Positions 7,007 through 53,970 of a stretch of 64,000 nt of DNA are shown here, one piece after another. The position numbers and the translations under genes are program-made. The stretch spans positions 1 to 64,000 of the forward strand of contig JAAHFN010000034.1 of the NCBI GenBank assembly GCA_010672965.1, read 5' to 3'. Each line of letters begins with the position of its first letter. Within the stretch, counting starts at the first letter, position 1. The notes beneath the pieces were generated by a model, which made no database searches, was not told the DNA's origin, and saw only the letters and a list, made by a program, of their open reading frames with translations. This DNA is from Oscillatoria sp. SIO1A7 (GTDB lineage Bacteria > Cyanobacteriota > Cyanobacteriia > Cyanobacteriales > Laspinemataceae).

Positions 7007-7093
7007 GGACTTACGCAGAAGGCAAGTTATAGTAGGGTGCGCCTTTTAGCACTCTTCGCCTAAACTGTCGATCCTATAATTTGCGTAAGTGCT
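7007..7093. mobile_element. MITE family B copy (AGGACTTACGCA ... TGCGTAAGTgCT inverted repeats)
   Basis: Terminal inverted repeats shared with the 13865-14127, 43243-43416, 46398-46514, 47164-47251 and 53884-53970 copies. Confidence 0.5.
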
Positions 7094-7420
7094 GTCTGTA
7101 TTGTACCTGAAGGCGCGATCGCTCTTCGTGCGAGCTTACTTGGGCGCTTTTCCCACAAGGGAGCCAAAAAGCCCAATGGTTGGGGCTTTCGCTTAGGGGG
7201 GAAATCCTCAAAAATCAACATCCTAGCCCGAGAGAGCGCTTCTGTAAGGAAATGATAATGCCAATGTTTGGGCAGAATCTAAACCAAGAAATGCAAGGGA
7301 CCAAAGAATAGGTAACCTAAGATAGAATCTATCGTTACAGTTAAGAGCTAGTAGGTGTCCCATCCAATGGTTTTCATCAACTAACCTATAAAAAACACTT
7401 GCATTCCGGAGGCTGCCGCC

Positions 7421-7867
7421 GTGAAACCAATTAGATCGTTAGAAGATGCTTTGAATCAATGCCGAGTTCTGGGGATGCGCCTCTCGCGTCAGCGCCGTTT
7501 TATTCTGGAGCTGCTCTGGCAAGTACAAGAACATCTATCGGCAAGAGAAATCTACGATCGCTTAAATCAAGCGGGCAAGGCCATTGGTCATACCTCAGTC
7601 TATCAAAACCTAGAGGCCCTATATAGCCAGGGTATCATTGAATGTATAGAACGCTCTGACGGTCGCTTATATGGGAATATTAGCGATTCTCACAGTCATG
7701 TAAATTGTTTGGACACCGGGCAACTATTAGACGTTTATATCCAGTTACCTAGGGACCTTATCGAAGAAGTGGAACGGCAAACCGGAGTGCAAATCGCCGA
7801 CTATAGGATTGAGTTTTATGGAAAGACAAAAAATAATGAGGAATCCGAGCAAAATGTTTCTACTTGA
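7421..7867 (+). CDS. Fur-family transcriptional regulator (Fur/Zur/PerR type)
   Basis: Winged-helix N-terminus with HTSVYQNLEAL; metal-binding HSH..C motif (SDSHSHVNCLDTG); GTG start. Confidence 0.85.
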   Translation: MKPIRSLEDALNQCRVLGMRLSRQRRFILELLWQVQEHLSAREIYDRLNQAGKAIGHTSVYQNLEALYSQGIIECIERSDGRLYGNISDSHSHVNCLDTGQLLDVYIQLPRDLIEEVERQTGVQIADYRIEFYGKTKNNEESEQNVST

Positions 7868-8280
7868 TTCTTAGGTTGCTAGCAAAAAATAAGTGCGAAG
7901 CTGGTAAATCAAATGGAAAGGCTTGGGACTCAAAGCGTAAGACTAAAGATGTGCAGCTTAATTCACAGAGAAACTTGTTTATTAACTTAGAGCTTAATTA
8001 AGAAAATAAATTCATAATAATAAAAACTTAAGAAAGGGATGTTTTGTTAGTCCACAATGGTGAGTTTGGGGGCTACCGCAGAAATTACCAGCCAGTGCAT
8101 TTCCAACTCTCTTTCCAGCGAAATCATCTGGAACTGTCGGGATGCCGTCGGGATGCCTTGGTTATCCCGAGATACGATCGCTACTGTGTTTATTGCACCC
8201 CACCTCTATACTGGGTAAAAGCTTTGAGGTGGTAGGGAATGGCCGCAAAATTGACAAGGGAAGGGGTTGTTGGGTTAAGC

Positions 8281-8341
8281 TCTACGGACAGAGCGTAAAG
8301 AGCGATCGCTTGGTGTGGGGTGTAGGGTGTAGGGTGTAGGG
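8281..8341. repeat. STRR-type heptanucleotide tandem repeat (GGTGTAG/GGGTGTA)
   Basis: gtgtggggtgtagggtgtagggtgtagggtgtaggg. Confidence 0.85.
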
Positions 8342-8645
8342 TGTAGGGAAACGTCTAGCTCTTTTTGTACTTTCCTCTTTACGCCCATGAAAACCAGACG
8401 CTTACCGGGTTGTACGGGTTCGCCGTGACGATTTTCGTTTGTCACCTTTGAGAGTGAAAAAGCCCGATCGCAAACACCTAAGCGCGACCCCCGTGATTTT
8501 TGACAATGAATGGGCACTTGGCCCTAAAGTAAATCGTCCTCAAACCCGACAAGTGGTGAAGTGACTGGCAATTTGATTGGCTCGACGCGAATAAGTATAT
8601 AAGGACAAACCCGGTACTCGGACCTAGAGGCACGGCTCTGTTGGA

Positions 8646-10754
8646 ATGATGAAAGAAAAATTTAACCGAAAGAGCAAAGAAGGAACCTATAGACTTCGGA
8701 GGCGGCGCAAAAGCCCGATCTCTACAGCGAGAAAAGACGATCTCTCTCGCCGATTGCGCTGGGCTTATCTGCGCAGAAGGTCCGGTGGAATAGGCATATC
8801 CCCTGGGGGAGAAGGGTCCGTTACAGGTCTTGGGCTATTGGAGAATCAAGAAGAATCCACAACCGAGGCTAAGGGTCCCAAGAAGCAGCCCAAAAATGTG
8901 GGTCGAGTAGTGGGGCAATGTCTAAGATTTATTTGGAAATGGCCCCTTTGGTGGTTTGCTCTGCTAGCGATTTGCAGTGGGGTTGGCGCGATCGCCTTGC
9001 AAAGATTGCTGACTATGCCGCCACAGACTGACTGCGAAACCCTCTCTGCAAATTCTCTGGATGGGGACCATCTCTATTGCGCCAATGCAGCCGCCAAGTC
9101 AGGGGAATTGGAAAAACTGATAGCGGCTATAGATTTGGTAGAAGGGTGGCCGGAGGACCACCCCCTGCGCGGCCAGGCACAAAGCCTGATGGGAGAATGG
9201 GCGAAAATGATGGTGGATATCGCCGATAAGAAATTTAATGGAGGCGATCGCTCTGAGGCAATGGAGATTGTGGCTAAAATCCCGGAGAAATCCCCCGGTT
9301 ACGAGCGCTTAATGAATAAGGTGGCAACCTGGGAAGGAGATTGGGATCGAGGTAAAGATATCTACAACGACGCCCAATATGCTTTGAAAAATAAGTCTTG
9401 GTCAGAAGCAAACAAGCACGCTAGGGAACTGTTGCTAGTCGATAATGCCTACTGGCGCACGGTGCGCTACGGTAAGCTCAAAGAGCAAATCGATAGGGAA
9501 GAGAAAGCTTGGAAAAAGCTGGAAAGCGCCCGGTATTATGCCAGTTGGGGCAGGGTGGAAGATCTGGTGTACTCCATCGACGAAGCCAGACAAATAGACC
9601 CTAGCACCTATACTAAAGCAGAGGCAGAAAAAGATGTGACAAAATGGAGCCAGCAATTGCTCGATATGGCTCAAAAACAATGGAAAAATGGAGATATGAA
9701 AAAAGCGATCGCCGCTGCAAATTGGATTCCTCCAGACTTGTCCATCCAGAGCGAGGCGGAAAACTTGAAGACTGTAATGCAGGCGGTGGCGCTGGTCGAG
9801 AATGATTCTCCTACGGCAGATCCGACGGAACGCCTATTTTCTTTTTGGCAAGCCCAAGCTTCTCTGGGCAAAATCGACTCGGAAAGCCAGATATACGAGC
9901 AAGCCCAAGAGTTGCAGGCTTCCTGGGAGGAACAAATACAAGACCTAGTACAGCTGCAAATGGCTAATTTAACTGCTAGTTTTGCTCACCCGGTCGCTCT
10001 GAAATTGGCTATAGACCAAGCAGAGATGATAGAGATGGATAGACCCAGACGGATTCAGGCTCAAACTCTTATTGCTGAATGGCGCAAGGAAATTCAAAAA
10101 ATTGAAGACCGCAGCTATTTGGCGCAAGCAAGAAGCTTGGCCTCCTCGGAGACAATTGAAGGGTATAAGGCGGCGATCGCTCTTGCTAGTAAGGTGGAGC
10201 TGGGACGACCTCTGCGCATAGAAGGGCAAACTCTAATAGCCGAATGGAAAAAACGGGTAGAAACAATAGAAGATAAACCTATCTTGGAGAAAGCTCGCTC
10301 CCTGGCAAAAGAAGGCAATCTCAAAGAGGCTGTGGAGACTGCAGAAAAGATTGGCCCCGGTCGGGCGCTGTACGAAGAGGCTGGCAATGAAATCTCTAAG
10401 TGGGTTGCCAAAATCCAAATTGCTGAGGATAGACCAATTCTAGACGAAGCCACATCCCTGGCAGCTCGAGGATTGCTGCAAGATGCTATAGACACTGCTT
10501 ATCAGATTGGCTCCGGTCGCGCTCTGTATAGCGAAGCTCAAGATGCAATCTACCGCTGGGAGGCACAACTTAGTGCAATCCGGGCTCGGGAAGCTGCTGC
10601 CCAACGTGCTGCTTACGAACGGCAAACAACAACTTACTATCAACAGTCGGAACCCTTCTATACCCCACCGGAACCGGTCTATACTCCACCCGCACCAGCT
10701 TATATTCCACCACCCGCTTATATTGCACCACCCGCTTATACTCCCCCAGAATAG
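8646..10754 (+). CDS. Repeat-containing membrane-anchored protein with a proline-rich C-terminal tail
   Basis: Basic N-terminus, one TM helix (WPLWWFALLAICSGVGAIAL), four roughly 35-aa internal repeats (RP.RI.AQTLIAEW....I..IEDR..L..A.SLA; GRALYEEA...), and an (A/P)PAYxPP tail. Confidence 0.55.
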   Translation: MMKEKFNRKSKEGTYRLRRRRKSPISTARKDDLSRRLRWAYLRRRSGGIGISPGGEGSVTGLGLLENQEESTTEAKGPKKQPKNVGRVVGQCLRFIWKWPLWWFALLAICSGVGAIALQRLLTMPPQTDCETLSANSLDGDHLYCANAAAKSGELEKLIAAIDLVEGWPEDHPLRGQAQSLMGEWAKMMVDIADKKFNGGDRSEAMEIVAKIPEKSPGYERLMNKVATWEGDWDRGKDIYNDAQYALKNKSWSEANKHARELLLVDNAYWRTVRYGKLKEQIDREEKAWKKLESARYYASWGRVEDLVYSIDEARQIDPSTYTKAEAEKDVTKWSQQLLDMAQKQWKNGDMKKAIAAANWIPPDLSIQSEAENLKTVMQAVALVENDSPTADPTERLFSFWQAQASLGKIDSESQIYEQAQELQASWEEQIQDLVQLQMANLTASFAHPVALKLAIDQAEMIEMDRPRRIQAQTLIAEWRKEIQKIEDRSYLAQARSLASSETIEGYKAAIALASKVELGRPLRIEGQTLIAEWKKRVETIEDKPILEKARSLAKEGNLKEAVETAEKIGPGRALYEEAGNEISKWVAKIQIAEDRPILDEATSLAARGLLQDAIDTAYQIGSGRALYSEAQDAIYRWEAQLSAIRAREAAAQRAAYERQTTTYYQQSEPFYTPPEPVYTPPAPAYIPPPAYIAPPAYTPPE

Positions 10755-10912
10755 GCTTATACTCCCCCAGAACCCGCTTATACTCCACCGCTAATTGACG
10801 CGCCAATTGACGAAATTGAGTAGTTAATTTTTTATGTCTGTCTTTTATTCGTGGTTTGTTATTCATGGTTGATTAGAGGTGAGTGCGAACTACGAAACAC
10901 GAACCGCGAACT

Positions 10913-12862: not shown

Positions 12863-13085
12863 ACAGCTAACAGCGGTCAGCTCTCAGCAGTCAGCGGTTA
12901 CTGCTTAAGCTCCGATCGCATTTTGATAAAATAAAAGATTGTTAAGCTCGGGTGTGGACCGCGATGCTTTGCCGTTCCCGAATAGTATAGTCATTTCAAT
13001 TAAGTTTGATACAGTTACAAGCGCTCTTATTGTAGGGGCGATTCGCGAATCGCCCCTACATCCTGTCTCATTTTTATTTGAAATG

Positions 13086-13188
13086 ACAATAAGCTATGAA
13101 TGTGCCCAATGCCCAATTCCCAATGCCCAATTCCCAATGCCCAATTCCCAATGCCCAATTCCCAATGCCCAATTCCCAATGCCTCGTT
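13086..13188. repeat. STRR heptamer tandem repeat (CCCAATG/CCCAATT) x14
   Basis: Read directly; it creates spurious N-terminal extensions on the flanking ORFs. Confidence 0.9.
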
Positions 13189-13677: not shown

Positions 13678-13790
13678 GAAGAGCGGAAGAGCGGAAGAGC
13701 GGAAGAGCGGAAGAGCGGAAGAGCGGAAGAGCGGAAGAGCGGAAGAGCGGAAGAGCGGAAGAGCGGAAGAGCGGAAGAGCGGAAGAGCGG
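13677..13790. repeat. Octanucleotide tandem repeat GGAAGAGC x14
   Basis: Starts inside the stop region of the preceding gene. Confidence 0.9.
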
Positions 13791-13864
13791 ACTAGACAAT
13801 AAGCACGCTTTGGATTAAATTACGATAGGCGATCGCTCTTGGCATACTGGCTGAAAAGCCATAT

Positions 13865-14127
13865 AGGACTTACGCAAAATATCCAAATATGGTGTTTTGT
13901 AGGGGCAATCCCCCTGTGGTTGCCCCGTCCGTAGAGTTATATCAAATCCGGTTAAACATTTACAATATTTGTAGGGGTTCCCCGGGAGCGCCCCGGCCGC
14001 CTCAATCCACCCCAGCCTCTCCGAGGAGGGCTCCCAGGAGCGGAAGCCAACCGGGGCGCTCCCGGGGGCACCGCCCCTACGGAATTTATGGGTCATTAAT
14101 CGGATTTGATATTAATGCGTAAGTCCT
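13865..14127. mobile_element. MITE family B copy (AGGACTTACGCA / TGCGTAAGTCCT inverted repeats, GC-rich hairpin core)
   Basis: Inverted repeats at both ends; internal GTAGGGGCAATCCCCC hairpin as in the other copies. Confidence 0.5.
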
Positions 14128-14178
14128 ACCATAGAAAGTCTCGGCCGCGATCGCTTTGCTCTATTTGGTACAGAACAA

Positions 14179-14994: not shown

Positions 14995-14995
14995 C

Positions 14996-15148
14996 TATAG
15001 CGGGTCTCAAATTGATGTGAGGTGTCTGGGGCGAAGCATCCCAATATGAGAGTTGCCATTAGGAGCCCCGAGATTGTCGCTCGTGATGCTGTCGCCCCTA
15101 CGTTTCTAGGACTCGATACTTTATTACACTTATTTGAGAAACGCTATA
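14996..15148. mobile_element. MITE family A copy, orientation 2, immediately after the sseA stop
   Basis: TATAGCGGGTCTCAAAT...GGGGCGAAGCATCCC...GATGCTGTCGCCCCTAC...ATTTGAGAAACGCTATA. Confidence 0.65.
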
Positions 15149-15163
15149 TTTTTGACTAGATAA

Positions 15164-33023: not shown

Positions 33024-33026
33024 TTC

Positions 33027-33979: not shown

Positions 33980-34644
33980 TTGGATCCCTCTTTTTTTAGA
34001 ATCAGTTGCTAGTGCCATCAATATTTCAGCGCAATATAGCTTTTGTTAGATTTAACCTTCCTTAGAACCCACGCAGTAACCCTATTATTAGGAGGTGCGC
34101 CAAGCACCAGACGCTATATATAGCTTTCGAGGCTAAAATTTGCGTAAGTCCTAATTTATTTTAGCCACAGGCAAGACAAGTCTTGCCAATGCAGGTTAGA
34201 AATGCAGGACAGAAAAGAGTGGCAAGGGTGGGTCCTATGCGCTACGCGCAGGCTACACCTACGGCAAGCATCTCCTGAGCCTGTCGTTGGGGTTCTTTGT
34301 CTAGGGTCCCCTTGTCCGTCCTGAGCCTGGACGTAGGCGTAGCCCGCCCTCCGGGGCGTAGGGTCCCCTTGTCACCCCAATGCCCAATGCCCAATGCCCG
34401 ATGCCCCATTCTTTCTTGAACTTATTGTGGCTTTTGGTTGAGGAACTTATACTGGGGATACGATCCTGACATCGCTCGTATCGGAGATAATATTGCCCCA
34501 GCAAGTTTGGCAGAAACAGAGGAAATCTATTTCAAGTGGTCCTCAAGAATGGATTTCCCCAGAATAGGTTTTGGTCGAAAAAAGAATGCTGCCTAACCCT
34601 TGGGCGTTGATAACCTCGGCTTTTTATAATCATTGGCATAGTCT

Positions 34645-36288: not shown

Positions 36289-36697
36289 AATTGGGAAGAG
36301 CGGAATGGGGCATTGGGCATTGGGCATTGGGCATTGGAGTTATGAGTTATGAGTTATGAGTTATGACTTTTGAGTTTCAATTATGCGCGAGCAGTCAGCG
36401 GTCAGCAGTCAGCGGTTAGCAGTCAGCGGTTATATCAAATCCAGTTAATCGCCCCCAAAAAAAGTCAAGTTTTGCGTAGGACGGGCGTCCCGCCCGTCCT
36501 ACGGGAGATTCCCAATTTTTCTGTGGACGTTAAAACCGACATGATGTTAGCTGTTGGGGGTCAGCTCTTGCCGGAGGCGATCGCTGTTGGCGCAGCCTGC
36601 GCGGAGCGGATAAGCTTCTTTTCCCAATGCCCCATGCCCAATTCCCCATGCCCCATGCCCAATTCCGCTCTTCCCAATTCCCCAATTCCCAATTTCC

Positions 36698-38251
36698 CTA
36701 GAAATCAAAATAAATATAGGGGGTGCTGTTTTCTGGGGCGAAGAGCAAGACTGCAAAAAAGCAGAGGGGAACTAGGAGTATTTTTATCGGCCAATTTAGC
36801 TGTAGCTTGAAAACTTTATGGAAGAGATAGGAGCATCCCATCAATGCTGCTATTATTATGAGAAGCAAGCATAGCTCGAATGGCATGAGACCGAGAGTTT
36901 CTATATAGATTTTCTGGGTAAATTGAACGTCAGGCGATCGCCCCCATAAATGCTGTATGACCCAACCGGATTGTTTGAGGTCGGGGAGCCGGAAGACAAT
37001 CCAAGAGAGAAAGACCATATTTTGAGTGAGCAGCCAAGCGACAATTGTGCCGAGGTAACTCTGCCACCAGCGATCGATCTGGCTGAAGCGCCCGGAAATA
37101 GTATCGACAAGTCGGTGAACTACTAAAGCTATTCCATGCAGAGCGCCCCAGACGATAAAGCCCCAAGCCGCTCCGTGCCAGATGCCAGCAACTAACATTA
37201 CTATTGCTAAGTTCAGGCAAGTTATGGCCAATCCTTTGCGAGAGCCACCTAGAGGAAAATAGAGGTAGTTTCGCAACCAATCTCCCAAACTGATATGCCA
37301 CCGACGCCAAAACTCGGCAATGCTGGTGGTAAAGTAAGGAAAGTCAAAGTTTTGCGGTAGTTTGAAACCGAGCAAGAGGGCGCTGCCGAGGGCAATATCT
37401 ACATAGCCGCTGAAATCTAGATAGAGTTGCAATCCGTAAGCAAAGGTCGCTAGCCGCAGGTCGCCGCTACCCGCCCGCTCCAAGTTGTCGAAGCAGAGGT
37501 TGACAAACTGGGCGAGGCGATCGGCTACGATGCCTTTTTTTATAGCTCCACAAGCAATTAACCACAATCCCTCTACCAACTGATGCGAAGCCGGGAAATG
37601 CAGGGTTTTCAGTTGTCGGATAAAGTTATGATAGCGGGCAATAGGACCGGAAAGCAGTTTGGGAAAAAAGAATTTGTAAACCGCAAATTTAAGGAAATTC
37701 TGGCTGGGAGGCGCGCCTCGATAAACGTCAACGAGGTAGGAGATACATTCAAAGCTAAAAAAACTGATTCCCAAAGGAGGTTTAATATTATCCCCATACC
37801 AGCGAGCAAGTTCTAAGGCAGCAGGAGAATCGAGGATGTTGCCGGCGACAGTTAAGAAGAAGGGAACGTATTTAAAACCCAAGAGTAGGAATATATTGAA
37901 GATTATACCCAGACAAAATAAGGCGAGGTAACGAGAATTCCAAGTTTCTTGAGGATTGGTTAGAGATGAGGACGAGTTTGGATCCTCTAAGTCTGACTGC
38001 CTGGGTTGGCGATTTTTGCTAATCCCCAGCCCTAGATAGAAGTTAATCGAGGTGCCGAGTAAAAGCAGGGGGATATATTTAATTTGTAGGGAGGCATAGA
38101 ATATTAAGCTGGCGATGAGTAGTAAGATAAGGCGCGATCGCTGCTTTTGTGCCGACCAGTATGCCAGGAGCAGGCCGGACAGGAAAAGGCCATAAAGAAT
38201 TGAGATAAAGGTCACTTTAGAATTGGGAATTGGGCATGGGGCATTGGGCAT
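36698..38251 (-). CDS. MBOAT-family membrane O-acyltransferase (AlgI/DltB-like); true start probably the GTG near 38215
   Basis: Multi-pass membrane protein; conserved His region WRRWHISLGDWLRNYLYFPLGGSR...GIWHGAAW typical of MBOAT. Confidence 0.8.
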   Translation of the reverse strand: MPNAPCPIPNSKVTFISILYGLFLSGLLLAYWSAQKQRSRLILLLIASLIFYASLQIKYIPLLLLGTSINFYLGLGISKNRQPRQSDLEDPNSSSSLTNPQETWNSRYLALFCLGIIFNIFLLLGFKYVPFFLTVAGNILDSPAALELARWYGDNIKPPLGISFFSFECISYLVDVYRGAPPSQNFLKFAVYKFFFPKLLSGPIARYHNFIRQLKTLHFPASHQLVEGLWLIACGAIKKGIVADRLAQFVNLCFDNLERAGSGDLRLATFAYGLQLYLDFSGYVDIALGSALLLGFKLPQNFDFPYFTTSIAEFWRRWHISLGDWLRNYLYFPLGGSRKGLAITCLNLAIVMLVAGIWHGAAWGFIVWGALHGIALVVHRLVDTISGRFSQIDRWWQSYLGTIVAWLLTQNMVFLSWIVFRLPDLKQSGWVIQHLWGRSPDVQFTQKIYIETLGLMPFELCLLLIIIAALMGCSYLFHKVFKLQLNWPIKILLVPLCFFAVLLFAPENSTPYIYFDF

Positions 38252-38409
38252 TGGGCATTGGGCCCCTACGCCCCGGAGGGCGGGCTACGCCTACGACTTG
38301 CCTCGGGATAAAATTGGGCATTGGGCATTGGGCATTGGGCATTGGGCAGGGGGTCTTACAAGGGTATGTTTTTTAGATTAGGCATTCTTGAGAGGTATCG
38401 ATTGAGGAC

Positions 38410-38646
38410 GTAGGGGCGACAGCATTCCCGAGACAGCTTTTGCAAATAGATCAAAAATATTGTATTGGAATGCTTCGCCCCAGAAACCGTAGGGGCGACA
38501 GCATTCCCGAGACAGCTTTTGCAAATAGATCAAAAATATTGCATTGGAATGCTTCGCCCCAGAAACCGTAGGGGCGACAGCATTCCCGAGACAGCTTTTG
38601 CAAATAGATCAAAAATATTGTATTGGAATGCTTCGCCCCAGAAACC
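38410..38646. repeat. Three tandem 79-bp copies of the MITE family A hairpin core (GTAGGGGCGACAGCATTCCCGAGACAG...TTGGAATGCTTCGCCCCAGAAACC)
   Basis: Three near-identical units with no spacers, so not a CRISPR. Confidence 0.85.
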
Positions 38647-38735
38647 TGTGCAGGAAGGAGGATTATTAATTATAAAATCTGAATTGATACAACTCTCAAT
38701 GCCCAATGCCCAATGCCCAATGCCCCATATTATAT

Positions 38736-42089: not shown

Positions 42090-42150
42090 CGTTAACCTCG
42101 ATCGCTATTCTTAATATAAGCGCTCCTTTTCCAGAAAGCACTGCGATCGC

Positions 42151-42303
42151 TATAGCATTTCTCAAATTGATGTGAGGTTATCTGGGGCGAAGCATCCCTA
42201 TAGGGAAATTCCCGTTTGGAGTGCCGAGATAGTCTTGGGGATGCTGTCGCCCCTACGCCCCTCAACCCGATCCGTTCATTACACTTATTTGAGAAACGCT
42301 ATA
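42151..42303. mobile_element. MITE family A copy, orientation 2, in the promoter region of the NACHT gene
   Basis: TATAGCATTTCTCAAATTGATGTGAGG...GGGGCGAAGCATCCC...GGGGATGCTGTCGCCCCTAC...ATTTGAGAAACGCTATA. Confidence 0.65.
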
Positions 42304-42519
42304 TTCAAAAATCAAATAGCCCTCGATTACTAGCTAGTTCTTCGGCAAAACTCAGAAAAACTTGACGGCGAGTCGCATTGAGGAATACGCTCGCCGTTGA
42401 TTGATATGGGTTAGGAGTGGCGTTCGGGGAGTTGAGGAACGGAAGGGTTGGGGAAGAGGGAGATGCCTTCCATCTCCTCATACTTCCGTCACCCTGATTT
42501 CCTTGCTCTATTTCAACTA

Positions 42520-42864: not shown

Positions 42865-43242
42865 TACTGTTTCTCCTACTTTGTTGTGTCTTTTCATTGC
42901 TTGTACCCCGTGGGTCTCTCTTATATATATTACTCTTTTTCGATCGCACTGCTTCATTTCTATAAACCCAGGGAAAACGCATCTAAATTAATTATGATTT
43001 TTCCATATATAGTGGTTCAAGCTATAATAATAAACTATATATAGAGCTTTATTCTCAATAAGGCGCTAACTATTGACAATATTCGCAATAAAAGGCATTT
43101 TTAAGCCGCTTATTGACAAGATGCGTTTTCCCTGTCTATAGACCTTATTAGGTTTGTCAACGCTAATCTCCTATAGGTCCCGGCAACGTCGAACTATTTA
43201 TATTGAAGGTTAACACCCAACCCTTCTGACCCAGGACTTACG

Positions 43243-43416
43243 CATTTTCTCGGCTTGGACTCTATATCTAGTAGGACTTACGCAAAGACACTTTAGATCG
43301 GGGCAACCACGGGGGATTGCCCCTACAAGCACTAGATATAGACATTTTGCGTAAGTCCTGTCTAGGTTCTGGTGCTAGGCAGCGCACCCTAAATCAAGAG
43401 TCTATGCGTAAGTCCT
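43243..43416. mobile_element. MITE family B, two nested or tandem copies (AGGACTTACGCA ends at 43243, 43273, 43348, 43405)
   Basis: Two left and two right terminal inverted repeats. Confidence 0.5.
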
Positions 43417-43687
43417 GTCACCCATACTCTAAACATCCCTTCGCATCCAAGTCACCTCTTATGTAAAAATAAAATAGCCGGGTCACAAGCGATCGCTATT
43501 CAATCATAAAATAGTCGTTGATTACCGAGCCAGGAGAGCGATCGCCTCTTATCCAAAAATCAAATAGCCGTTGATTACCGAGCCGGGAGAGCGATCGCCT
43601 CTTATCCAAAAATACAAAGTCTAGTTTGGCTTTGGGTGCGAAGACCCAATAACCTTAGTTAACACAACAGGGAGTTTTAATTATTAT

Positions 43688-43972
43688 ATGGAAATTACGA
43701 TTTCATTGCCAGATACAATAGCGCGTTGCCTAGAAGCGAAGTGGGGCGACTTAGAGCGTCGCTCCTTAGAAGCGCTCGTCTTGGAAGCTTATAGAGAAGG
43801 TTCGATTAGCGCGGGTAAAGTGCGAGAATTGCTGGGTATGAATACTCGGCTAGAAACCGATGCTTTTCTAAAAGCAAAAGGAATTCATTTAGCATACGAC
43901 GAGGCCGACTTTGAGGCAGATCGGCAAACTCACGAACAATTGCAACGAGAAGGAAAACTGAAAGTAAGATGA
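43688..43972 (+). CDS. UPF0175-family antitoxin-like protein
   Basis: 94 aa; its stop overlaps the start of the DUF3368-type PIN remnant by 4 bp (ATGA). Confidence 0.6.
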   Translation: MEITISLPDTIARCLEAKWGDLERRSLEALVLEAYREGSISAGKVRELLGMNTRLETDAFLKAKGIHLAYDEADFEADRQTHEQLQREGKLKVR

Positions 43973-44150
43973 TTATTATTTCAGATACTTATCCTATTTG
44001 TTATTTGCTATTAATTGGAGAAATAGAATTATTGTCTCAACTCTACGGTCAAGTGCTGATTCCTACAAAAGTCCAAGAGGAGTTGTCCGACAAGCGATCG
44101 CCTGCTATTGTTAAAAGTGCAATACAATACAATTCCCAATTCCCAATTCC
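43969..44150 (+). pseudogene. DUF3368-type PIN toxin, N-terminal fragment truncated by an STRR tract
   Basis: [39 protein letters not shown] is the N-terminus of a roughly 150-aa DUF3368 protein; the frame then runs into AATTCCC repeats. Confidence 0.5.
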
Positions 44151-44302
44151 CAATTCCCAATTCCCAATTCCCGATTCCCGATTCCCGATTCCCAATTCCC
44201 AATTCCTAATTCCCAAAAAGCCCGGTTTCTTCAAGAAACCGGGCTTTTATATTGCGCCCAAAAAAACGGTTTATCGAAAAAAACCGGTTTTTTATATTAG
44301 CT

Positions 44303-46210
44303 TTACTCAACCGTAACGGACTTAGCCAAATTACGGGGTTGATCCACATCCAAACCGCGACGGGCGGCGATATGATAAGCCAACAGTTGCAAGGGAATTA
44401 CCGATACTATCGGCGAGATTAACTCGTCAACATCTGGCACTGGCAAAATAGTATCGAAAACCTCCGCAGCTTCGGAAATATTTTTGGGAGTTACTCCGAT
44501 TAAGCGAGCATCTCGGGCTTTGGCTTCTTGGGCATTGCTGATGACTTTTTCATAGACGCTACCAGGCATAGCGATCGCCACCACCGGCACCTTATCATCC
44601 AACAACGCAATTGGTCCGTGCTTCATCTCCCCGGCGGGATACCCTTGGGCGTGAATATAGCTAATTTCCTTCAGCTTCAGGGCTCCTTCCAGAGCTATAG
44701 GAAAATTAATTCCCCGTCCCACAAAGACAAAATCCCGAGTATCCGCGAACCCGTGAGCAAACTCCTCAATTTGGCGCTCTTGACTGCTGAGAAACAGTTC
44801 TATTTGCCCGGGTAAATGGCGCAGTCCCGCGATAAGTTGCTCTATTTCCGACTCCGGCAAAGTCTGGCGTCGAGCGGCTAAATCAATTGCTAAGAAATAA
44901 AACGCCATCAATTGGGCGATAAAAGTCTTAGTCGCTGCTACTCCAATCTCAATTCCAGCCATAGTATCGATAATATGAGGAACCAGATGTCCCAGAGATG
45001 ACTCGGGTCGATTGGTAATACCCAGCATTCGGGGCCGGGAGGGTTCTGGCTGACCGGCACGCCGCTGTTGCTCCATTGCCAAAGCAGCTAGAGTATCTGC
45101 AGTTTCCCCAGACTGGCTAATGCCGATAGTCATAGTATTGGGGGTCAGAGGTGCTGGGGCGTAGCGAAATTCAGAAGCATATTCTATTTGAACGGGAATT
45201 CTGGCAAGTTTTTCTAGAATATATTTCCCTACCAAACCGGCGTGCCAGCTCGTACCGCAAGCCAGAATTTGGATTCGTTCCAAATTGGCATATAATTCTG
45301 GGGGCAAGCCGAGATTAACTGGCGTTTGTTCTTCTGCGGAGTCCGGTTTCCAGTCATCGTTTAAATAAGCATCCAAGCAAGCTCGCAATACTCCCGGTTG
45401 CTCGTATATTTCTTTGAGCATGAAGTGCTTGAAGCCTTGTTTCTCAACGACAACGGGATTCCAGTTGAGCAGGTGGGGCGTTTTTTTGAGGCGATCGCCT
45501 GCAAAGTTATAAACCTCTACGCCCAGGGGACTTAGTTTGGCCACTTCTCCATTTTCCAGAGGCAGTACCGCTCGGGTATGGGAGACTATAGCTGGCGTAT
45601 CGGAAGCGCAGAAAAATTCTCCTTGACCAAAACCAATAACCAGGGGAGCTTGTTGCCTAGCGACAATCAGCTCGTCGGGATAGTCCGCAGAGACTACCGC
45701 GATCGCAAACGACCCTTGAAGCATTAGTAGCGATCGTCGCACGGCATCCAAGAATTTAGAAGCATAAGCGCAGGCAGTATCTTGTGGCGTCTCTTGTTCT
45801 AAAAACTCGGCAATTAAATGGGGGATTACCTCCGTATCTGTTTCGGAGCTAAACTCGCGTCCTCGTTTTTTTAGCCCCTCTCGCAAATCGCGATAGTTTT
45901 CAATAATGCCGTTTTGCACCACTGCCACCCGTCCCGCCGTATCTCTATGGGGGTGGGCGTTGTGTTCCTCTGGTTTGCCGTGAGTGGCCCAGCGGGTATG
46001 TCCAATGCCAACCCCAGCCAGATTTTCCAACCCAACGAGCTTTTCTCGCAATCGGTAGAGTTTGCCCTTAGCTCGAATGCAAGTAATTTCTCCTTCCGAG
46101 ACTGTGGCTAAGCCCGCTGAATCGTAGCCCCGGTATTCCAGTTTTTCCAAACCTGCCAGCAAAAGTTCGCTCGCTGGTTGAGTGCCGATATAGCCAACAA
46201 TGCCGCACAT
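44303..46210 (-). CDS. glmS: Glutamine--fructose-6-phosphate aminotransferase (isomerizing)
   Basis: MCGIVGYIG N-terminal nucleophile; glutaminase domain plus two SIS domains; C-terminal KSVTVE. Confidence 0.92.
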   Translation of the reverse strand: MCGIVGYIGTQPASELLLAGLEKLEYRGYDSAGLATVSEGEITCIRAKGKLYRLREKLVGLENLAGVGIGHTRWATHGKPEEHNAHPHRDTAGRVAVVQNGIIENYRDLREGLKKRGREFSSETDTEVIPHLIAEFLEQETPQDTACAYASKFLDAVRRSLLMLQGSFAIAVVSADYPDELIVARQQAPLVIGFGQGEFFCASDTPAIVSHTRAVLPLENGEVAKLSPLGVEVYNFAGDRLKKTPHLLNWNPVVVEKQGFKHFMLKEIYEQPGVLRACLDAYLNDDWKPDSAEEQTPVNLGLPPELYANLERIQILACGTSWHAGLVGKYILEKLARIPVQIEYASEFRYAPAPLTPNTMTIGISQSGETADTLAALAMEQQRRAGQPEPSRPRMLGITNRPESSLGHLVPHIIDTMAGIEIGVAATKTFIAQLMAFYFLAIDLAARRQTLPESEIEQLIAGLRHLPGQIELFLSSQERQIEEFAHGFADTRDFVFVGRGINFPIALEGALKLKEISYIHAQGYPAGEMKHGPIALLDDKVPVVAIAMPGSVYEKVISNAQEAKARDARLIGVTPKNISEAAEVFDTILPVPDVDELISPIVSVIPLQLLAYHIAARRGLDVDQPRNLAKSVTVE

Positions 46211-46397
46211 TTACCGTTTCCTCTTCGATCGCATACATATATATTCATTTTTAGTTGCGCCAATTATAAAAACGGTTCCGGATGCTAGCGATTTTAGTAG
46301 TCGGTCAGCTATCAGCAGTCAGCTATCAGCGGTCAGCTATCAGCAGCCATTTATCAGCAGTCAGCTATCAGCAGTCAGCGGTCAGCAGCCATTTATC

Positions 46398-46514
46398 AGT
46401 ACTTACGCTTGCCTGTCCATATCTAGTCTTTGTAGGGGCAATCCCCCCGCGATTCTCAGGGGCCCAGACGCGGGGCGCGTTCGCCCCTATGACTAGAGTC
46501 TATGCGTAAGTCCT
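46398..46514. mobile_element. MITE family B copy (degenerate left end)
   Basis: AGTACTTACGC...GTAGGGGCAATCCCCCC...TGCGTAAGTCCT. Confidence 0.45.
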
Positions 46515-46735
46515 ATGTATGTAAGGTGGGCACCCTAAGCTAGCAGATCCTTATGACTGCTGACTGCTGAGTGGCGATCGCTATGACTGCTGAGTGGCGA
46601 TCGCTATGACCGCTGACCGGCAATCGCTATGACCGCTGACCGGCGATCGCTAAAAAAATAAAAAAGGGAGCCTATCGCCCCCTGATTTTCCAATATGGCT
46701 GTTTAGAGCCAGCTATATATATGATGTTTTCCTGC

Positions 46736-47083
<348 letters not shown>

Positions 47084-47163
47084 TTATCGCAGTCCTTCCC
47101 CCTGACTCGAAAAAGTCCCCATAACTTAAAAGTTCGTAATACTTGCTCTAATTTTTTTCGATC

Positions 47164-47251
47164 GGGACTTATGCAAATAGTAGGGTCGAAATCTACATCT
47201 AGAGTCTGGTGCTAGACTAGCACCCTACAAATAGATGCCTTGCGTAAGTCC
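47164..47251. mobile_element. MITE family B copy
   Basis: GGGACTTATGCA...TGCGTAAGTCCT. Confidence 0.45.
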
Positions 47252-47858
47252 TGTCTTAGTAATGCAATATCAATCCAGTAATTGCTGCTATTTCCTGACG
47301 TACCCAGGGATTTAAAGAGGGCCATTATAACCAGCTAGTGGGAGCCGCCTACGGAGTGTGGGAAGGGTGGGAAGGGTGGGAAGAGTAGCGACTGCTGCGA
47401 TCGCTACAGTCGCGTTCTTCCTGTATTTTAGAAAAATCGGCAAATTCTAAAAGCAGATTAGGAGAGCGATTGTATGCTATCTATCAGATAAGATGAAGAA
47501 ATACTAAAAATATGACGGTGCGGTCCAGGCATTAACAGCCAAAGCAATTACCTTGGCATAAGGCATAGGTATGAGGCATGAAAATGCTTCAGGATAAGCA
47601 ATGGTCCCTTAGCAAAGCGTTTCCATAGGAGAATCGCTCCCCAATCCTCTATTAACCCAGAGGTATTGAACCGGCATAGGGAAAAATGTGGCCCATAGCC
47701 AGAGCGATTTTTTTGGCAGCAAAGAAAAACTAGCCCCGATATCCACTTCTCGATCCAGATATCGATATGCGAGGTGGGCAACTGCAAAGTACGACAAAAT
47801 TCAAAGCAAAACCAGCCAAGTAAAACTTAACTTTAGTAGGCAAAAAGGAGAAAGTTTG

Positions 47859-48245
47859 ATGAGCGAGATAGTTGAAGAAACGGTAAAAGAAAATACCACA
47901 GTAGAAACCGGAGCAAGTGAAGAGGTAAAAGAAGATAGCGCAGCAGAAACCGGAGCAAGTGAAGAAAAGGTTGATAGCGCAGCAGAAACCGGAGCAAGTG
48001 AAGAAAAGGTTGATAGCGCAGTTGAAGAAAGGGTCAAAAAAATTACCGCAGAGCAACTGGGGGTTAAAGAAGAAGAGGTAACGATGGAAGCCAGTTTCGT
48101 TGACGATCTAGGCGCAGATTCCCTGGATACTGTGGAATTAGTAATGGCCTTTGAAGAAGAGTTTGGCACAGAAATTCCCGACGAGGAAGCAGAAAAAATT
48201 ACGACAGTAAAAGCTGTCGTGGACTACATTAAGTCGCATTCATAA
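47859..48245 (+). CDS. acpP: Acyl carrier protein with an unusual roughly 45-aa N-terminal repeat-containing extension
   Basis: C-terminal 80 aa ([66 protein letters not shown]) is canonical ACP with the DSL phosphopantetheine site; RBS AAAAAGGAG; the N-terminus has a 2 x 13-aa repeat [13 protein letters not shown]. Confidence 0.8.
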
Positions 48246-48312
48246 AAAAAGAACCTGCCTCCACTTGTGTTCTGCGTTTTTGGTAGGGGGAAGACAAAGC
48301 TTCTGGAAAATT

Positions 48313-49602: not shown

Positions 49603-49786
49603 GGTCTGAAACAAGGAGCGCAGTCAACTTGAAATTTCAGGCTTGACAATATTGATAGTTGAAAATCCCCAAAATCCCATTGCTCCCGATAGCGGGAACG
49701 TGGGATTATAATCTTGGGGCGATTTCTAATACCTGCATTCGCCCTGCCTCGTACCAGTAAATTACCGTCGTTAACAACAAGAGACT

Positions 49787-51790
49787 ATGGCCGTTGCAAC
49801 CAAACAATCGTTAGACGAATTGTGCATCAATTCCATCCGCTTTCTGGCTATTGACGCCGTAGAAAAGGCCAAGTCAGGGCATCCAGGACTGCCAATGGGT
49901 GCGGCCCCGATGGCATATGTGCTTTGGAATCGCTTAATGCGGTTCAACCCCAAAAATCCACAGTGGTTTAACCGCGATCGCTTCGTACTATCGGCAGGCC
50001 ACGGCTGCATGTTGCAGTACGCCCTGCTCCACCTGACTGGCTACGATAGCGTAACCCTCGACGACATCAAGCAATTCCGCCAGTGGGAGTCGAAAACTCC
50101 AGGGCACCCAGAAAACTTTATGACCCCTGGGGTGGAAGTAACTACCGGACCTCTGGGACAAGGGATTGCTAACGGAGTAGGTTTGGCGATCGCCGAAGCT
50201 CACCTAGCCGCCAAATTCAACAAAAAAGATTGCCAGCTCGTAGATCACTACACCTACGTCATTCTCGGCGATGGTTGCAACATGGAAGGGGTCTCCGGAG
50301 AAGCCTGCTCCTTGGCCGGTCACCTCGGCCTCGGCAAACTAATCGCCCTCTACGACGACAACCATATCTCCATCGACGGTGGAACCGAAATTTCCTTCAC
50401 CGAAGACGTAAACAAGCGCTTTGAAGCCTATGGCTGGCACGTCCAACATGTCGAAGGAGGCAACGATGACCTCGACGGCATCCAAAAAGCCATAGAAGCT
50501 GCCAAAGCAGTCACCGACAAGCCTTCCTTTATTAAAATCACCACAACCATTGGCTACGGTTCTCCCAAAAAGGCAGGAACTGCTGGGGTTCACGGAGCTG
50601 CGTTGGGTGGCGATGAAGTAGAGGCAACTCGCAAAAATCTAGGTTGGGAATACGAGCCCTTCGTAGTACCAGAAGAAGCCCTCAAGCACTTCCGGGAAGC
50701 TGTGGAGCGGGGCGCTTCCCTTGAGGCAGAATGGAATCAAACTTTGGCCACCTACAAAACCAAGTATTCCGCAGACGCTGCCGAGTTCGAGCGCTACACC
50801 AGCGGCACCCTACCGGAAGGCTGGGAGAAAGCTCTGCCTACCTACAGTCCCTCAGACAAAGCCCTGGCAACTCGCAAAAATTCTGAACTCACTCTAAATG
50901 CTCTGGCTCCGGTCATTCCCGAACTGATTGGCGGTTCTGCTGACCTGACCCACTCGAACCTGACCTTTTTAAAAGTATCCGAGAGTTTCCTGAAAGGGAA
51001 GTATGAAAACCGGAACCTGCGCTTTGGGGTTCGCGAGCATGGAATGGGCGCAATTTGTAACGGTATCGCCCTGCACAACTCCGGATTGATTCCTTACGGC
51101 GCAACCTTCTTGGTCTTTACCGACTATATGCGTGCGGCGATTCGCCTCTCGGCCTTGTCGGAAGCGGGCTCCATCTGGGTGATGACTCACGATTCAATCG
51201 CTCTGGGCGAAGATGGTCCCACTCACCAGCCCGTTGAAACTGTTGCCTCTCTGCGGGCTATTCCCGATCTGTTGGTAATGCGTCCTGCGGATGGTAATGA
51301 AGTTTCTGGTGCCTATAAGGTTGCTATTGAGAACCGCAAGCGGCCGACTCTGATCGCTCTAACCCGCCAAGGTCTGCCCAATCTGGCTGGCAGCTCTATT
51401 GAAAATGCGGCAAAGGGTGCTTATGTTGCCTCCGATAGCGAGGGCACTCCCGATATTATCCTGATCGGTACTGGCAGCGAAGTCAGCCTCTGCGAGGAAG
51501 CTGCCAAAGAGTTGCGGGGTGAAGGCAAGAAAGTCCGCGTCGTCTCTATGCCCTGCTGGAAACTCTTCGACGAGCAGGATGAAGCTTATCGCGAATCCGT
51601 ATTGCCCAAGTCTGTCACCAAGCGTCTGGCAGTAGAAGCCGGCACTAGCTTTGGCTGGGGCCGTTATGTCGGCAATGAAAGCAATACTGTTTGCATCAAT
51701 TCCTTTGGTGCTTCTGCTCCCGGTGGCGTTGCCATGAAGAAATTTGGCTTCACCGTCGAGAATGTGGTAGCTAAGGCTAAGGCTCTTTAG
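49787..51790 (+). CDS. tkt: Transketolase
   Basis: [15 protein letters not shown]-binding motif; 667 aa. Confidence 0.92.
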
Positions 51791-51947
51791 GGCATTAGGG
51801 AGTAGGGAGTAGGGAGTAGGGTGTAGGGTGTACAGAAAAGTCAATAGTTAATAGTGAATAGTAAAAATCCCGATTCTTTCACTTTTCACTTTTCACTTTT
51901 CACTTCCTCCAATTCCCAATTCCCAATTCCCAATTCCCAATACAATA

Positions 51948-51983
51948 GAAACCCGGTTTGTTCAATTGAACAAACCGGGTTTC
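51948..51983. terminator. Perfect 36-bp palindrome GAAACCCGGTTTGTTCAATTGAACAAACCGGGTTTC after tkt, a member of the dispersed GAAACCCGGTTT...AAACCGGGTTTC palindrome family
   Basis: Read directly; related copies at 20655-20690, 26625-26775 (x3) and 44218-44290. Confidence 0.5.
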
Positions 51984-52526
51984 TGAGGATAGTGGGTTTA
52001 TTGCAAAAATCGCTGCCCAGAAATTATATAGCAGTAAGCGGTCAGCTTTCAGCGGTCAGCTTTCAGTACAAGTATTACCGTTCCTAGCTTTGGCCAAATT
52101 TGAACTATCCTAACCTTAATGCGTAGTGCTATAAAAAATGAGGAAAGCTTTAAGGCGCAGTCAGGGGTTACAGTTGTTTCTCCGTTGATGATTTCTCTGC
52201 CTAGGGTTTCGCTGCCGTTTCTACGCAGCCATTTTAGCGCAGGTTGAATACATATAGCAGTAAGCAGTCAGCTATCAGCAGTCAGCAAGGTGCGTCAAAG
52301 TCTTGCCATCTAAGCAATAGAGAGATTTGTAACCGTCCTAACCTTAGTGTGTAGTGCTATATATAATAATAGCATAGCTTGAAAAGCGCGATCGCTTTTA
52401 CGAAAATTGCTAGAGAAGGCAGACGGGCCACCTTACTTCTAAACGGGTTGCGGAGCGATCGCTCTTTGCTAAGTGAATCCCTCAAAACCATAATATTGCA
52501 CTACCAAGACATAAATAGATAAAAAT

Positions 52527-52772
52527 ATGACCGGCATTGTTATCCAAAACCTTGATGATGACTTCAAAGCGCGCCTGCAAAAGCGAGCAGAGGAGCGCGG
52601 GCGTTCCCTGGAAGAAGAAGCAAAAGAAATTCTCCGAATCGCACTGACCGAGAAGGCCGAGCAACCCGTCAATCTTGCCTTGGCTATTGAGAGACGCTTT
52701 GCCAATTTTGGCGATATTGAAATACCGACTATTCCCCGAGAACCGATGCGCGAACCACCCAAATTTGAGTAA
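52527..52772 (+). CDS. Ribbon-helix-helix antitoxin (VapB/FitA-like)
   Basis: MTGIVIQNLDDDFKARLQKRAEERGRSLEEEAKEIL is an RHH fold; 5 bp upstream of the vapC start. Confidence 0.6.
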   Translation: MTGIVIQNLDDDFKARLQKRAEERGRSLEEEAKEILRIALTEKAEQPVNLALAIERRFANFGDIEIPTIPREPMREPPKFE

Positions 52773-52777
52773 AATAC

Positions 52778-53214
52778 ATGATTATTCTCGATACCAATGT
52801 GTTATCCGAACTGATTAAAACCCAAGGCTCGATAGTTGTTCGTAGATGGGTTGCAGCACAACCTAATCTGAATTTGTTTAAACTACCATAACTCAAGCTG
52901 AAATTCTCTATGGAATTGCTTTATTGCCTTCTGGGAAACGTCAAAATCAATTGAATGAACAAGCTAAAATGATGTTTGCTGAAGATTTTGCAGGGCGCAT
53001 TTTACCTTTTGACGAAGCAGCAGCGAACGCTTTTGCAAAAATTGCCAGCGAAAGAAGACGGAGAGGCCGACCAATTTCCCAAGCTGATGCTCAAATTGCC
53101 AGTATTTGTTACGCTCGGAAAGCCGCGATCGCTACTCGCAATGTTTCTGACTTTGAAGAGTGTGGTATTTCTATAGTCAATTCTTGGAATAACGAATTCG
53201 ATCTTAATCATTAG
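52778..53214 (+). CDS. vapC: VapC/FitB-type PIN toxin, reading frame interrupted near 52887 (one-A deficit in an AAA run)
   Basis: MIILDTNVLSELIKT...(frame change)...TTITQAEILYGIALLPSGKRQNQL...GRILPFDEAAANAFAKIASERRRRGRPISQADAQIASICYARKAAIATRNVSDFEECGI, all VapC hallmarks. Confidence 0.6.
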
Positions 53215-53545
53215 ACCGTTCTTTTAAATATTGTTGATAGACGGGGTTGAACTGAAAATATTTATCTTGCCCTTGTCTTATACTATCGAGTAATAATCGT
53301 CTGCTCAGAGATTGAATGCCCGTCAAGACATCTGAAGTTGCTAAATTGACTGTCTTAAGGATTTGTTGTAAAGTTACGGGCATATTATCATCATTTATCT
53401 GAATCATTATTGCCCGTTCTGTCGGGGTTAGTCTTTGCCATTGTCGCTCTAGTTGCGATCGCAAAGTATTGGATAAAATCAAGCTTTGACATTGCATAAA
53501 TTCAGAAACTTTACCGCTAAATAAGTCTTGAATCGCGATCCTCAC
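53204..53545 (-). CDS. hypothetical protein
   Basis: 113-aa ORF; upstream of it on the minus strand (53546-53700) are two short ORFs (MTPEDKERLEACIAEAANILYRNKVK*) with no recognisable family. Confidence 0.3.
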   Translation of the reverse strand: MRIAIQDLFSGKVSEFMQCQSLILSNTLRSQLERQWQRLTPTERAIMIQINDDNMPVTLQQILKTVNLATSDVLTGIQSLSRRLLLDSIRQGQDKYFQFNPVYQQYLKERSND

Positions 53546-53883
53546 ATTTTGTTTGGATATTTTTTTGACTTATATGCAATATTTTCTCTAATTGTCCCTT
53601 CTAACATTTCAAAATACTGGGCCAAATTCATTTTACTTTATTTCTATACAAAATATTCGCAGCCTCAGCAATACAAGCCTCTAAGCGTTCCTTGTCTTCG
53701 GGAGTCATGGTTGCAAAAAATTAACTAATTTAGGTTATTCTATTGAGTCAAGGAGCTTGCTGTTTGATTGTTTAATCAAACACAAAACACAAAAAAATAT
53801 TTCGTATATTTCCGATCGGGATAATCAATTAACTATAAAGGTCTTTTGGCAAGGTCCGCTTTTTGGGTCTATTTGCAAATTTC

Positions 53884-53970
53884 AGGACTTACGCATAGAC
53901 TCTACCATAGGGGCGATCGCGGGGGGATTGCCCCTACCAATATCAGATCTCGATATTTTGTGTAAGTCCT
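53884..53970. mobile_element. MITE family B copy
   Basis: AGGACTTACGCA...GGGGGGATTGCCCCTAC...TGTGTAAGTCCT. Confidence 0.45.

Follow-up and report, generated by a model that had tools for sequence, protein, structure and literature searches.

A 64-kb stretch of the metagenome-assembled genome (MAG) of the marine cyanobacterium Oscillatoria sp. SIO1A7, hereafter the window, carries eight short intergenic elements, one of them nested in another, whose ends are identical to those of transposase-bearing insertion sequences (IS) of the ISPlag1 type. [quoted passage not shown] A MITE family had been proposed in the original prediction, and this proposal held: the elements are small and non-coding, are bounded by 13-bp repeats and 5-bp target-site duplications (TSDs), are present at multiple loci, include a nested pair, have empty sites in relatives and share their ends with an IS. 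The family is not a new kind, since its ends are those of the published ISPlag1; its elements are new members of the ISPlag1/ISAba11 branch of the IS701 family. Of this MAG, the analysis covers the 64-kb window. The window has a G+C content of 47.3% and contains the cyanobacterial HIP1 octamer GCGATCGC 83 times. Four proteins encoded in it are identical to the GenBank entries NER37390, NER37393, NER37421 and NER37422 of SIO1A7.

Terminal repeats, target-site duplications and empty sites

The proposed family, labelled family B, was described as at least seven copies bounded by a 12-bp inverted repeat. Matches to this 12-mer, AGGACTTACGCA, were counted on both strands with at most one mismatch, using 100 shuffles as a control. 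There are 14 matches against 0.26 expected, a number reached in none of the 100 shuffles. An additional 10-mer search of the window picked up two more left ends, which are degenerate and read GTACTTACGC (46399) and GGACTTATGC (47165). Of the 16 ends, 11 carry the exact 12-mer and two more carry it with one mismatch. The pairs face inward and bound non-coding segments of 87-263 bp (7006-7093, 13865-14127, 43233-43416 as an outer and 43273-43359 as an inner pair, 46398-46514, 47164-47252 and 53884-53970). Together with the excess of matches, this arrangement excludes the artefact that had been feared, namely an over-represented word without paired ends.

The 12-bp inverted repeat is real, and the true ends lie one base further out on each side, giving a 13-bp terminal inverted repeat, YAGGACTTACGCA...TGCGTAAGTCCTR. 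Beyond these 13 bp, the left and right arms are no longer complementary. The coordinates first given for the copies were mostly right, with 7007 moving to 7006, 43243 to 43233 and 47251 to 47252. What had been taken for a solo end at 34141-34153 is the right end of a decayed element of ~91 bp (34063-34153), the left repeat of which is reduced to AGAACCCACGCA (9/12) and the core of which aligns with that of the copy at 7006. Multiple paired copies are thus present, as predicted; they number eight, where seven and a solo end had been counted. No others emerged when each copy was compared with the whole window by BLAST. A near-match to the 12-mer at 62217 does not belong to family B; it is part of a direct repeat, ACTTACCCATAAACACCTTATA, at 62217-62240 and 62380-62400, which brackets ~140 bp holding the inverted repeat GGGTTGAACGGAGTG...CACTCCGTTCAACCC.

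Directly outside the 13-bp ends are 5-bp TSDs, which are perfect in four of the seven copies with recognisable ends, carry one mismatch in two and are absent in one; a perfect 5-bp match is expected by chance in about 1 in 1000 cases per element. The nested double predicted at 43243-43416 was borne out. Its inner copy, with its own duplication of TCTAG, interrupts the outer element at the CTATATCTAG box, and taking out this copy together with one TCTAG gives back an outer element of ~92 bp.

With sizes of 87-265 bp, all elements fall under the MITE limit of about 600 bp. According to the open reading frame (ORF) list of the window, the sole ORF overlapping any copy is a 93-amino-acid frame within the palindromic 13865 copy. 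A box resembling CTATAT(C/A)TAG is found in most copies, 7-30 nt from one end. All copies fold more stably than shuffled controls (z = -2.3 to -7.3), mostly owing to the terminal repeats and a central hairpin. The internal hairpin motifs that had been predicted are present, GGGGCAATCCCC or its complement inside copies at 13902, 43312, 46435 and 53923, and GCACCCTA at 43384 and 47220. Neither Rfam, at gathering thresholds, nor ARAGORN gave a match in the window, indicating that no known RNA family or tRNA-derived element accounts for the repeats.

A comparison of orthologous intergenic regions, as originally suggested, was made with contigs of uncultured relatives, picked for PsaC, GlmS and sulfurtransferase proteins that match exactly or nearly so. 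Empty sites were judged by local alignment of the window, minus the element and one 5-mer, to the relative. Relatives at 88-95% identity lack the insertions at four sites, corresponding to five elements, and two of these are exact empty sites with a single copy of the target. At the first, GAAAAGCCATAGAAAATC stands in contigs L331 and L332 (94-95% identical) in place of GAAAAGCCATA-(265 bp)-CCATAGAAAGTC in the window; in longer context, ...GGCTGAAAAGCCATAGAAAATCTCG... corresponds to ...GGCTGAAAAGCCATA-(TAGGACTT...AAGTCCTA)-CCATAGAAAGTCTCG... in the window. This exact junction sets the limits of the element at 13864-14128 and identifies CCATA as the duplicated target. At the second, contig L202 (91-93% identical) reads CTTCTGACCCATAATC against CTTCTGACC-(186 bp)-TCACCCATACTC at the 43233 site, and the reconstructed 43232-43417 empty site can be aligned with L202 gap-free over the junction. 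Contigs L202, L203 and L330 likewise lack the copies at 46398 and 47164, the 46398 junction being less tidy as it lies within a heptamer tract that itself varies by one unit. In the ~28 kb of sequence from the relatives, the 12-mer is absent even at one mismatch. Among the matches listed in a contig scan based on GlmS, the best loci are from Nostocales at ~75% identity, and none contains the 12-mer. At least four insertion sites, with five elements, were filled after the split from relatives that are 88-95% identical.

These empty sites bear on the idea that a host regulator binds the inverted 12-mers, or that they are a functional signal of another palindromic kind, kept by selection in promoters. 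Such a role would fit the location of the copies, which are all intergenic, several of them upstream of genes that include fur, psaC, glmS and the sulfurtransferase gene, at distances of 50-330 nt. However, the 88-95% identical relatives keep the genes and the flanks and lack the whole element, with the duplicated 5-mer in single copy. The neighbouring genes are functionally unrelated, one element is nested in another, and the same ends bound transposase genes. We therefore regard regulatory sites as an extremely improbable explanation.

Other differences between the window and its relatives were noted as well. A second repeat family of ~150 bp with a GGGGCGAAGCATCCCC-type hairpin, probably the 'family A' of the original prediction, is found at 5349-5501, 14995-15151, 23367-23511, 42150-42305, 60249-60326 and 60485-60559, and in L202 at 3193-3340. 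It is insertion-polymorphic as well: L331 and L332 lack the copy that the window has at 14999-15146, and a copy in L202 occupies a site (window ~43200) where the window has none. Furthermore, L202 lacks the window stretch 43448-44085, so that the UPF0175 gene (43688-43972) is gone and only the 3' end of the adjacent PIN-like gene (43969-44316) is left, meaning that a toxin-antitoxin pair beside the nested MITEs was gained or lost in a strain-specific manner. In L330, an ammonium transporter gene is found downstream of glmS instead.

Full-length elements with the same ends

A search for a transposase gene flanked by the same inverted repeats had been suggested. Such genes exist in other genomes, in ISPlag1 and its relatives, and none lies in the 64-kb window, for which reason the elements of the window are classed as MITEs. 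ISPlag1 was described in Planktothrix agardhii as an element of 1306 bp with one ORF of 337 amino acids, belonging to the IS701 group (Christiansen et al. 2008, PMC2464740), and its terminal repeat of 29 bp reads CAGGACTTACGCAAGCACGCTATATATAG (PMC2464740).

On plasmids, tblastn matches to the ISPlag1-type transposase were obtained from Planktothrix, Gloeocapsopsis dulcis, Nostoc sp. ATCC 53789, Nodularia spumigena, Moraxella osloensis and Acinetobacter baumannii, the Planktothrix copy being labelled 'IS701-like element ISPlag1 family transposase' by the annotation pipeline PGAP. In all six plasmid elements that could be delimited, the transposase gene lies between YAGGACTTACGCA and TGCGTAAGTCCTR, and four of the six have a perfect 5-bp TSD. 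The transposases from Acinetobacter (L328) and Moraxella (L329) are 46-57% identical to the cyanobacterial ones, yet the ends of their elements carry the exact 12-mer AGGACTTACGCA. Conservation of the IS ends across phyla is unusually strong in these elements. A profile built from six such transposases has over 7000 protein matches at E ≤ 1e-40, and all named ones in the best 120 come from cyanobacteria.

In metagenomes, a scan for CAGGACTTACGCA-N(4-14)-CTATATATAG returned at least 120 loci. Full-length elements of 1.25-1.6 kb with the same ends were found, and 6 of 12 have a perfect 5-bp TSD among the matches listed (for example ATTAA, TAATT, CCAAT, TGTAA and AAAAT). Many MITEs of 86-134 bp share the design of the window elements, with a perfect 5-bp TSD in 21 of 33 end pairs among the matches listed, and some (L218, L221, L267) have GTAGGG..CCCTAC hairpin cores like those of the window copies. 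One full-length element, L250, contains an intact ORF of 337 amino acids that scores 376 bits on the NCBIfam model NF049921, transpos_IS701_2 (IS701 family; cut-off 250), and also matches the Pfam families DDE_5 and DDE_Tnp_1. This ORF holds TRWKIEEFHREIK, which is the published 15-residue C1 motif of ISPlag1, CAIRWKIEEFHREIK, minus its first three residues. Most other full-length metagenome copies are frameshifted and decaying.

With respect to the IS701 family as a whole, the end consensus ---YACT-Y--YR was stated not to represent the entire family (De Palmenaer et al. 2008, PMC2266710). Compared with this consensus, and bearing in mind that it does not cover the whole family, CAGGACTTACGCA matches at ACT (positions 5-7) and YR (12-13) and differs at the Y of positions 4 and 9. 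IS701 proper duplicates 4 bp of its target (PMC2266710), whereas full-length elements of the ISPlag1 branch give 5 bp, equal to the MITEs of the window.

The same terminal repeats also occur in contigs filed as viral in IMG/VR, where they bound elements of ~100-115 bp in L001 (1972-2072), L002 (2098-2201), L015 (350-464) and L058 (14512-14626). The cores of these elements are unrelated to those of the window, 5-bp duplications are present (ACCTA, AGAAA), and L015 and L058 are identical in element and flanks. Among the matches listed in a 14-mer scan of the viral contigs, paired ends are found only in these four, and subfamily-specific and ISPlag1-specific 20-mers have no match in the viral contigs.

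Subfamilies, cores and genomic neighbourhood

The elements of the window and the delimited plasmid elements are listed in Table 1. The former fall into two subfamilies that differ in their hairpin core. B1 comprises the left half of the copy at 13865 and the copies at 43273, 46398 and 53884, which align over their full length with an invariant GTAGGGGCAATCCCCC; its core starts with GTAGGGGC and folds as a GC-rich hairpin. B2 comprises the copies at 7006, 34063, 43233 (outer) and 47164, which have a GGTGC..GCACCCTA-type hairpin in common; in the outer copy at 43232-43417, the core is a GGTGCTAGG..GCACCCTA hairpin. The end-proximal sequences of B1 and B2 read CAGGACTTACGCAAAATGTCYATATCTAG and AGGACTTACGCATAGACTCTA, respectively. 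No published name for either subfamily was found in the searchable literature, the coverage of which is incomplete.

Table 1. MITEs of the window (first eight rows) and transposase-bearing plasmid elements with the same ends (last six rows)
Element	Position (strand)	Length	Ends	TSD (left/right)	Folding z	Setting
B2-type MITE	7005..7094 (.)	90 bp	left end CAGGACTTACGCA; right end with 1 mismatch (AGCACTTACGCA, minus strand)	TCTGT/TCTGT	-3.6	between crr6 (6469-6954, minus) and fur (7421-7867, plus)
Composite MITE	13864..14128 (+)	265 bp		CCATA/CCATA		stops 51 nt upstream of sulfurtransferase (rhodanese) gene
Old B2-type copy	34063..34153 (.)	~91 bp	right end intact (34141-34152)	no recognisable TSD		
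Outer B2-type MITE	43232..43417 (+)	about 92 bp without guest		TGACC/TCACC		271 nt upstream of UPF0175 antitoxin gene
Inner B1-type MITE	43272..43360 (-)	89 bp		TCTAG/TCTAG	-7.3	
B1-type MITE	46397..46515 (+)	119 bp	degenerate left end AGTACTTACGCT	TTTAT/TGTAT		at edge of heptamer repeat tract, between psaC terminator and glmS start
B2-type MITE	47163..47253 (+)	91 bp	degenerate left end GGGACTTATGCA	no clean TSD (TCGAT/TCTTA)		182 nt upstream of psaC
B1-type MITE	53883..53971 (-)	89 bp	right end with 1 mismatch (TGTGTAAGTCCT)	AATTT/AATTT	-5.5	
Planktothrix agardhii plasmid NZ_LR882940		1306 bp (published length)		TTCAA		
Gloeocapsopsis dulcis		1257 bp		GGATA		
Nostoc sp. ATCC 53789		1248 bp		ATAGT		
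Moraxella osloensis plasmid NZ_CP014237 (L329)		1210 bp		GAATA		
Nodularia spumigena		1427 bp		no perfect repeat		
Acinetobacter baumannii plasmid NZ_OR436922 (L328)		1158 bp		no perfect repeat		

The composite copy consists of a B1-type left half with the GTAGGGGCAATCCCCC hairpin, a palindromic module of 174 bp (13939-14112) and the right terminal repeat. The module has inverted ends of its own, TATATCAAATCCGGTTAA and TTAATCGGATTTGATATT, possibly flanked by TTA, and a third end motif of the TATATCAAATCCGGTTAA/TTAATCGGATTTGATATT type is found at 36431-36448, beside another GC-rich hairpin. The 174-bp module may represent a third type of small mobile element.

The two subfamilies also bear on the origin of the elements. 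They could be independent remnants of full-length ISPlag1-like elements that lost their interiors by deletion in place, nothing having moved as a MITE. There is a precedent in Planktothrix, where 197-bp remnants bounded by ISPlag1 repeats were documented at a deleted microcystin locus (PMC2464740); many of the full-length metagenome copies are decaying, and deletion would likewise leave terminal repeats and target duplications. However, the four B1 copies occupy four loci with different TSDs and share one length class and one core that is not derived from an IS, and the same applies to B2. Independent deletions would not arrive at one set of junctions and one core time after time, transposase-derived sequence is left in none of the copies, and elements of ~88-90 bp with perfect TSDs recur across many other cyanobacterial contigs. 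Homologous cores at different loci thus argue for spread as MITEs over separate deletions in place, which we consider very unlikely.

The cores open up a further alternative. Since those of B1 begin with GTAGGGGC and fold as GC-rich hairpins, the copies could be palindromes resembling repetitive extragenic palindromic (REP) sequences or REPINs, moved by a tyrosine transposase of the REP-associated (RAYT) or IS200/IS605 type, with the GTAG hairpin as the functional part and the 12-mer as an incidental feature. In line with this idea, GTAG-tagged REPs are known in cyanobacteria (PMC3733652), and free-standing GTAG palindromes, such as that at 13032-13059, are present in the window. On the other hand, the empty sites define a unit that runs from terminal repeat to terminal repeat with a 5-bp duplication, and its ends are identical to those of elements encoding a DDE transposase. 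By what is established for these families, REP/RAYT systems and IS200/IS605 elements lack terminal inverted repeats and insert without duplicating their target. The hairpin is perhaps captured cargo, but it is not what defines the mobile unit, and a REP-like origin of the elements is highly improbable.

Besides the example just mentioned, free-standing GC-rich palindromes headed by GTAG occur in the window at 20014-20066 and elsewhere (GTAGGGGCGATTCGCGAATCGCCCCTAC being one of them), and they look like the GTAG-tagged REPs of cyanobacteria (PMC3733652). On the plus strand, GTAGGG is found 40 times against ~16 expected for a random hexamer by a rough estimate. The cores of the MITEs may be host hairpins that were captured.

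As originally predicted, all copies are intergenic, as judged from the ORF list of the window and from Pfam searches with the flanking ORFs (Crr6 and Fur, rhodanese, IscA-like and DUF6930, UPF0175). The flanking genes are crr6, fur, the sulfurtransferase gene, an iscA-like gene, a DUF6930 gene, the UPF0175 antitoxin gene, glmS, psaC and acpP, and for several copies the gene downstream, for instance fur, psaC, glmS or the sulfurtransferase gene, begins 50-330 nt away. A scan of positions 43000-47800 for consensus promoters and terminators found no site within the copies at 43233, 43273, 46398 and 47164. What was originally predicted about promoters concerns position only.

Tandem arrays of heptamers (GTCAGCA/GTCAGCT, GGGCATT, TGAGTTA) are found at 46304-46399 with 46554-46570 and at 36300-36430 with 36620-36690. 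They form inverted pairs around short intergenic segments and resemble the cyanobacterial STRR repeats; the array beside the 46398 MITE differs in length from that of L202. At 38409-38646, within the region 38222-38725, a unit of 79 bp that opens with CGTAGGGGCGACAGC is repeated three times in tandem with 98% matches, flanked by inverted heptamer arrays (ATTGGGC at 38222-38348 and CAATGCC at 38697-38725).

Proposed mobilisation and comparison with known systems

We propose that the elements keep just the parts recognised by a transposase, namely the 13-bp YAGGACTTACGCA repeat and, mostly, the CTATAT(C/A)TAG-like box, around a short GC-rich hairpin core. A DDE transposase from a full-length element that is, or once was, present elsewhere in the SIO1A7 genome would bind both ends, and perhaps also the CTATATATAG box. 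It would then excise or copy the element and insert it at a 5-bp staggered cut, the repair of which would generate the 5-bp target duplication. In this way, B1 and B2 would each have spread as MITE lineages into intergenic DNA. Mobilisation in trans, a partner in the SIO1A7 genome and the chemistry of the reaction are inferred from the elements, and their structure, duplications, insertion polymorphism and identity of ends with transposase-bearing elements are observed directly.

Several observations weigh against this explanation. No homologue of the transposase is encoded in the 64-kb window (tblastn with an ISPlag1-type query, E > 5), and no SIO1A7 transposase appears among the best 120 of the more than 7000 family members retrieved by the profile. 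Nothing like the GC-rich, GTAG-type cores is seen in the ends of those full-length elements that were examined. The copy at 47164 lacks a clean duplication and its empty site is untidy, with ~9 further differing nucleotides, and the copy at 34063 has one decayed end. Finally, identity within a subfamily is only about 65-70%, which fits an old or multi-source spread better than one recent burst.

A more far-reaching reading, which is rather unlikely in our view, would treat the shared 13-nt end as a cross-phylum 'end code', by which any ISPlag1/ISAba11-type transposase might move any such MITE. The MITEs of the window would then be chimeras that repeatedly capture GTAG-headed, REP-like hairpins of the host, and could act as strain-specific structural modules, in RNA or DNA, that change how fur, psaC, glmS and the sulfurtransferase gene are expressed.

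The preferred reading, that of MITEs with ISPlag1-type ends, reveals no new mechanism. It supplies an annotation rule for an intergenic repeat in a marine Oscillatoria MAG, the 13-bp YAGGACTTACGCA ends plus a 5-bp duplication, that can be scanned for genome-wide, and it ties this repeat to an IS already known for remodelling the toxin gene clusters of Planktothrix. In cyanobacterial metagenomes, short derivatives of this IS branch occur widely. As the insertions vary among relatives that are 88-95% identical, they are usable as strain markers, and they are candidates for strain-specific expression changes of fur, psaC, glmS and their neighbours.

Of the known systems close to these elements, ISPlag1 (see also Entfellner et al. 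2022, PMC9366434) has terminal 13 nt, CAGGACTTACGCA, that are identical to those of the MITEs. A subterminal box of the CTATATATAG type is found in most copies of the window, the host phylum is shared, the copy on the Planktothrix plasmid is flanked by a 5-bp duplication (TTCAA), and short non-coding derivatives of ISPlag1 have already been described. In contrast to ISPlag1, the elements of the window contain no transposase sequence, have unrelated GC-rich hairpin cores and are shorter (87-119 bp; 265 bp for the composite). Moreover, they form two amplified subfamilies in another genus, in DNA of 47% G+C, and beyond the first 13 nt the 29-bp repeat of ISPlag1 is only loosely matched.

ISAba11 of Acinetobacter baumannii is reported to have 13-bp inverted repeats and to fall in an IS701-related branch (PMC7519801, citing Rieck et al. 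2012). The window MITEs have repeats of this length too. The delimited plasmid elements from Acinetobacter and Moraxella end in TAGGACTTACGCA...TGCGTAAGTCCTA, ISAba11 itself being compared by description only. It differs in being autonomous and in belonging to another phylum, and no MITE of the type found in the window is reported for it.

Nezha, from Anabaena and Nostoc (Zhou et al. 2008), is likewise a cyanobacterial MITE of similar size that has terminal repeats in common with an IS (PMC3184786), folds stably and shows filled and empty sites between relatives (PMC3184786). However, the template copy of Nezha has a direct repeat of 10 bp, CATTATCTAC (PMC6042816), as opposed to 5 bp in the window, and its partner is ISNpu3. 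Identity with Nezha was rejected on this difference in direct repeats, the two being set apart by description rather than by the sequence of their repeats.

The GTAG-tagged REPs (Di Nocera et al. 2013, PMC3733652), lastly, resemble the core of B1, GTAGGGGCAA..TTGCCCC, which is a GC-rich stem-loop headed by GTAG. REPs have neither terminal inverted repeats nor a target duplication, whereas the hairpin of the window elements is cargo inside a unit bounded by repeats.

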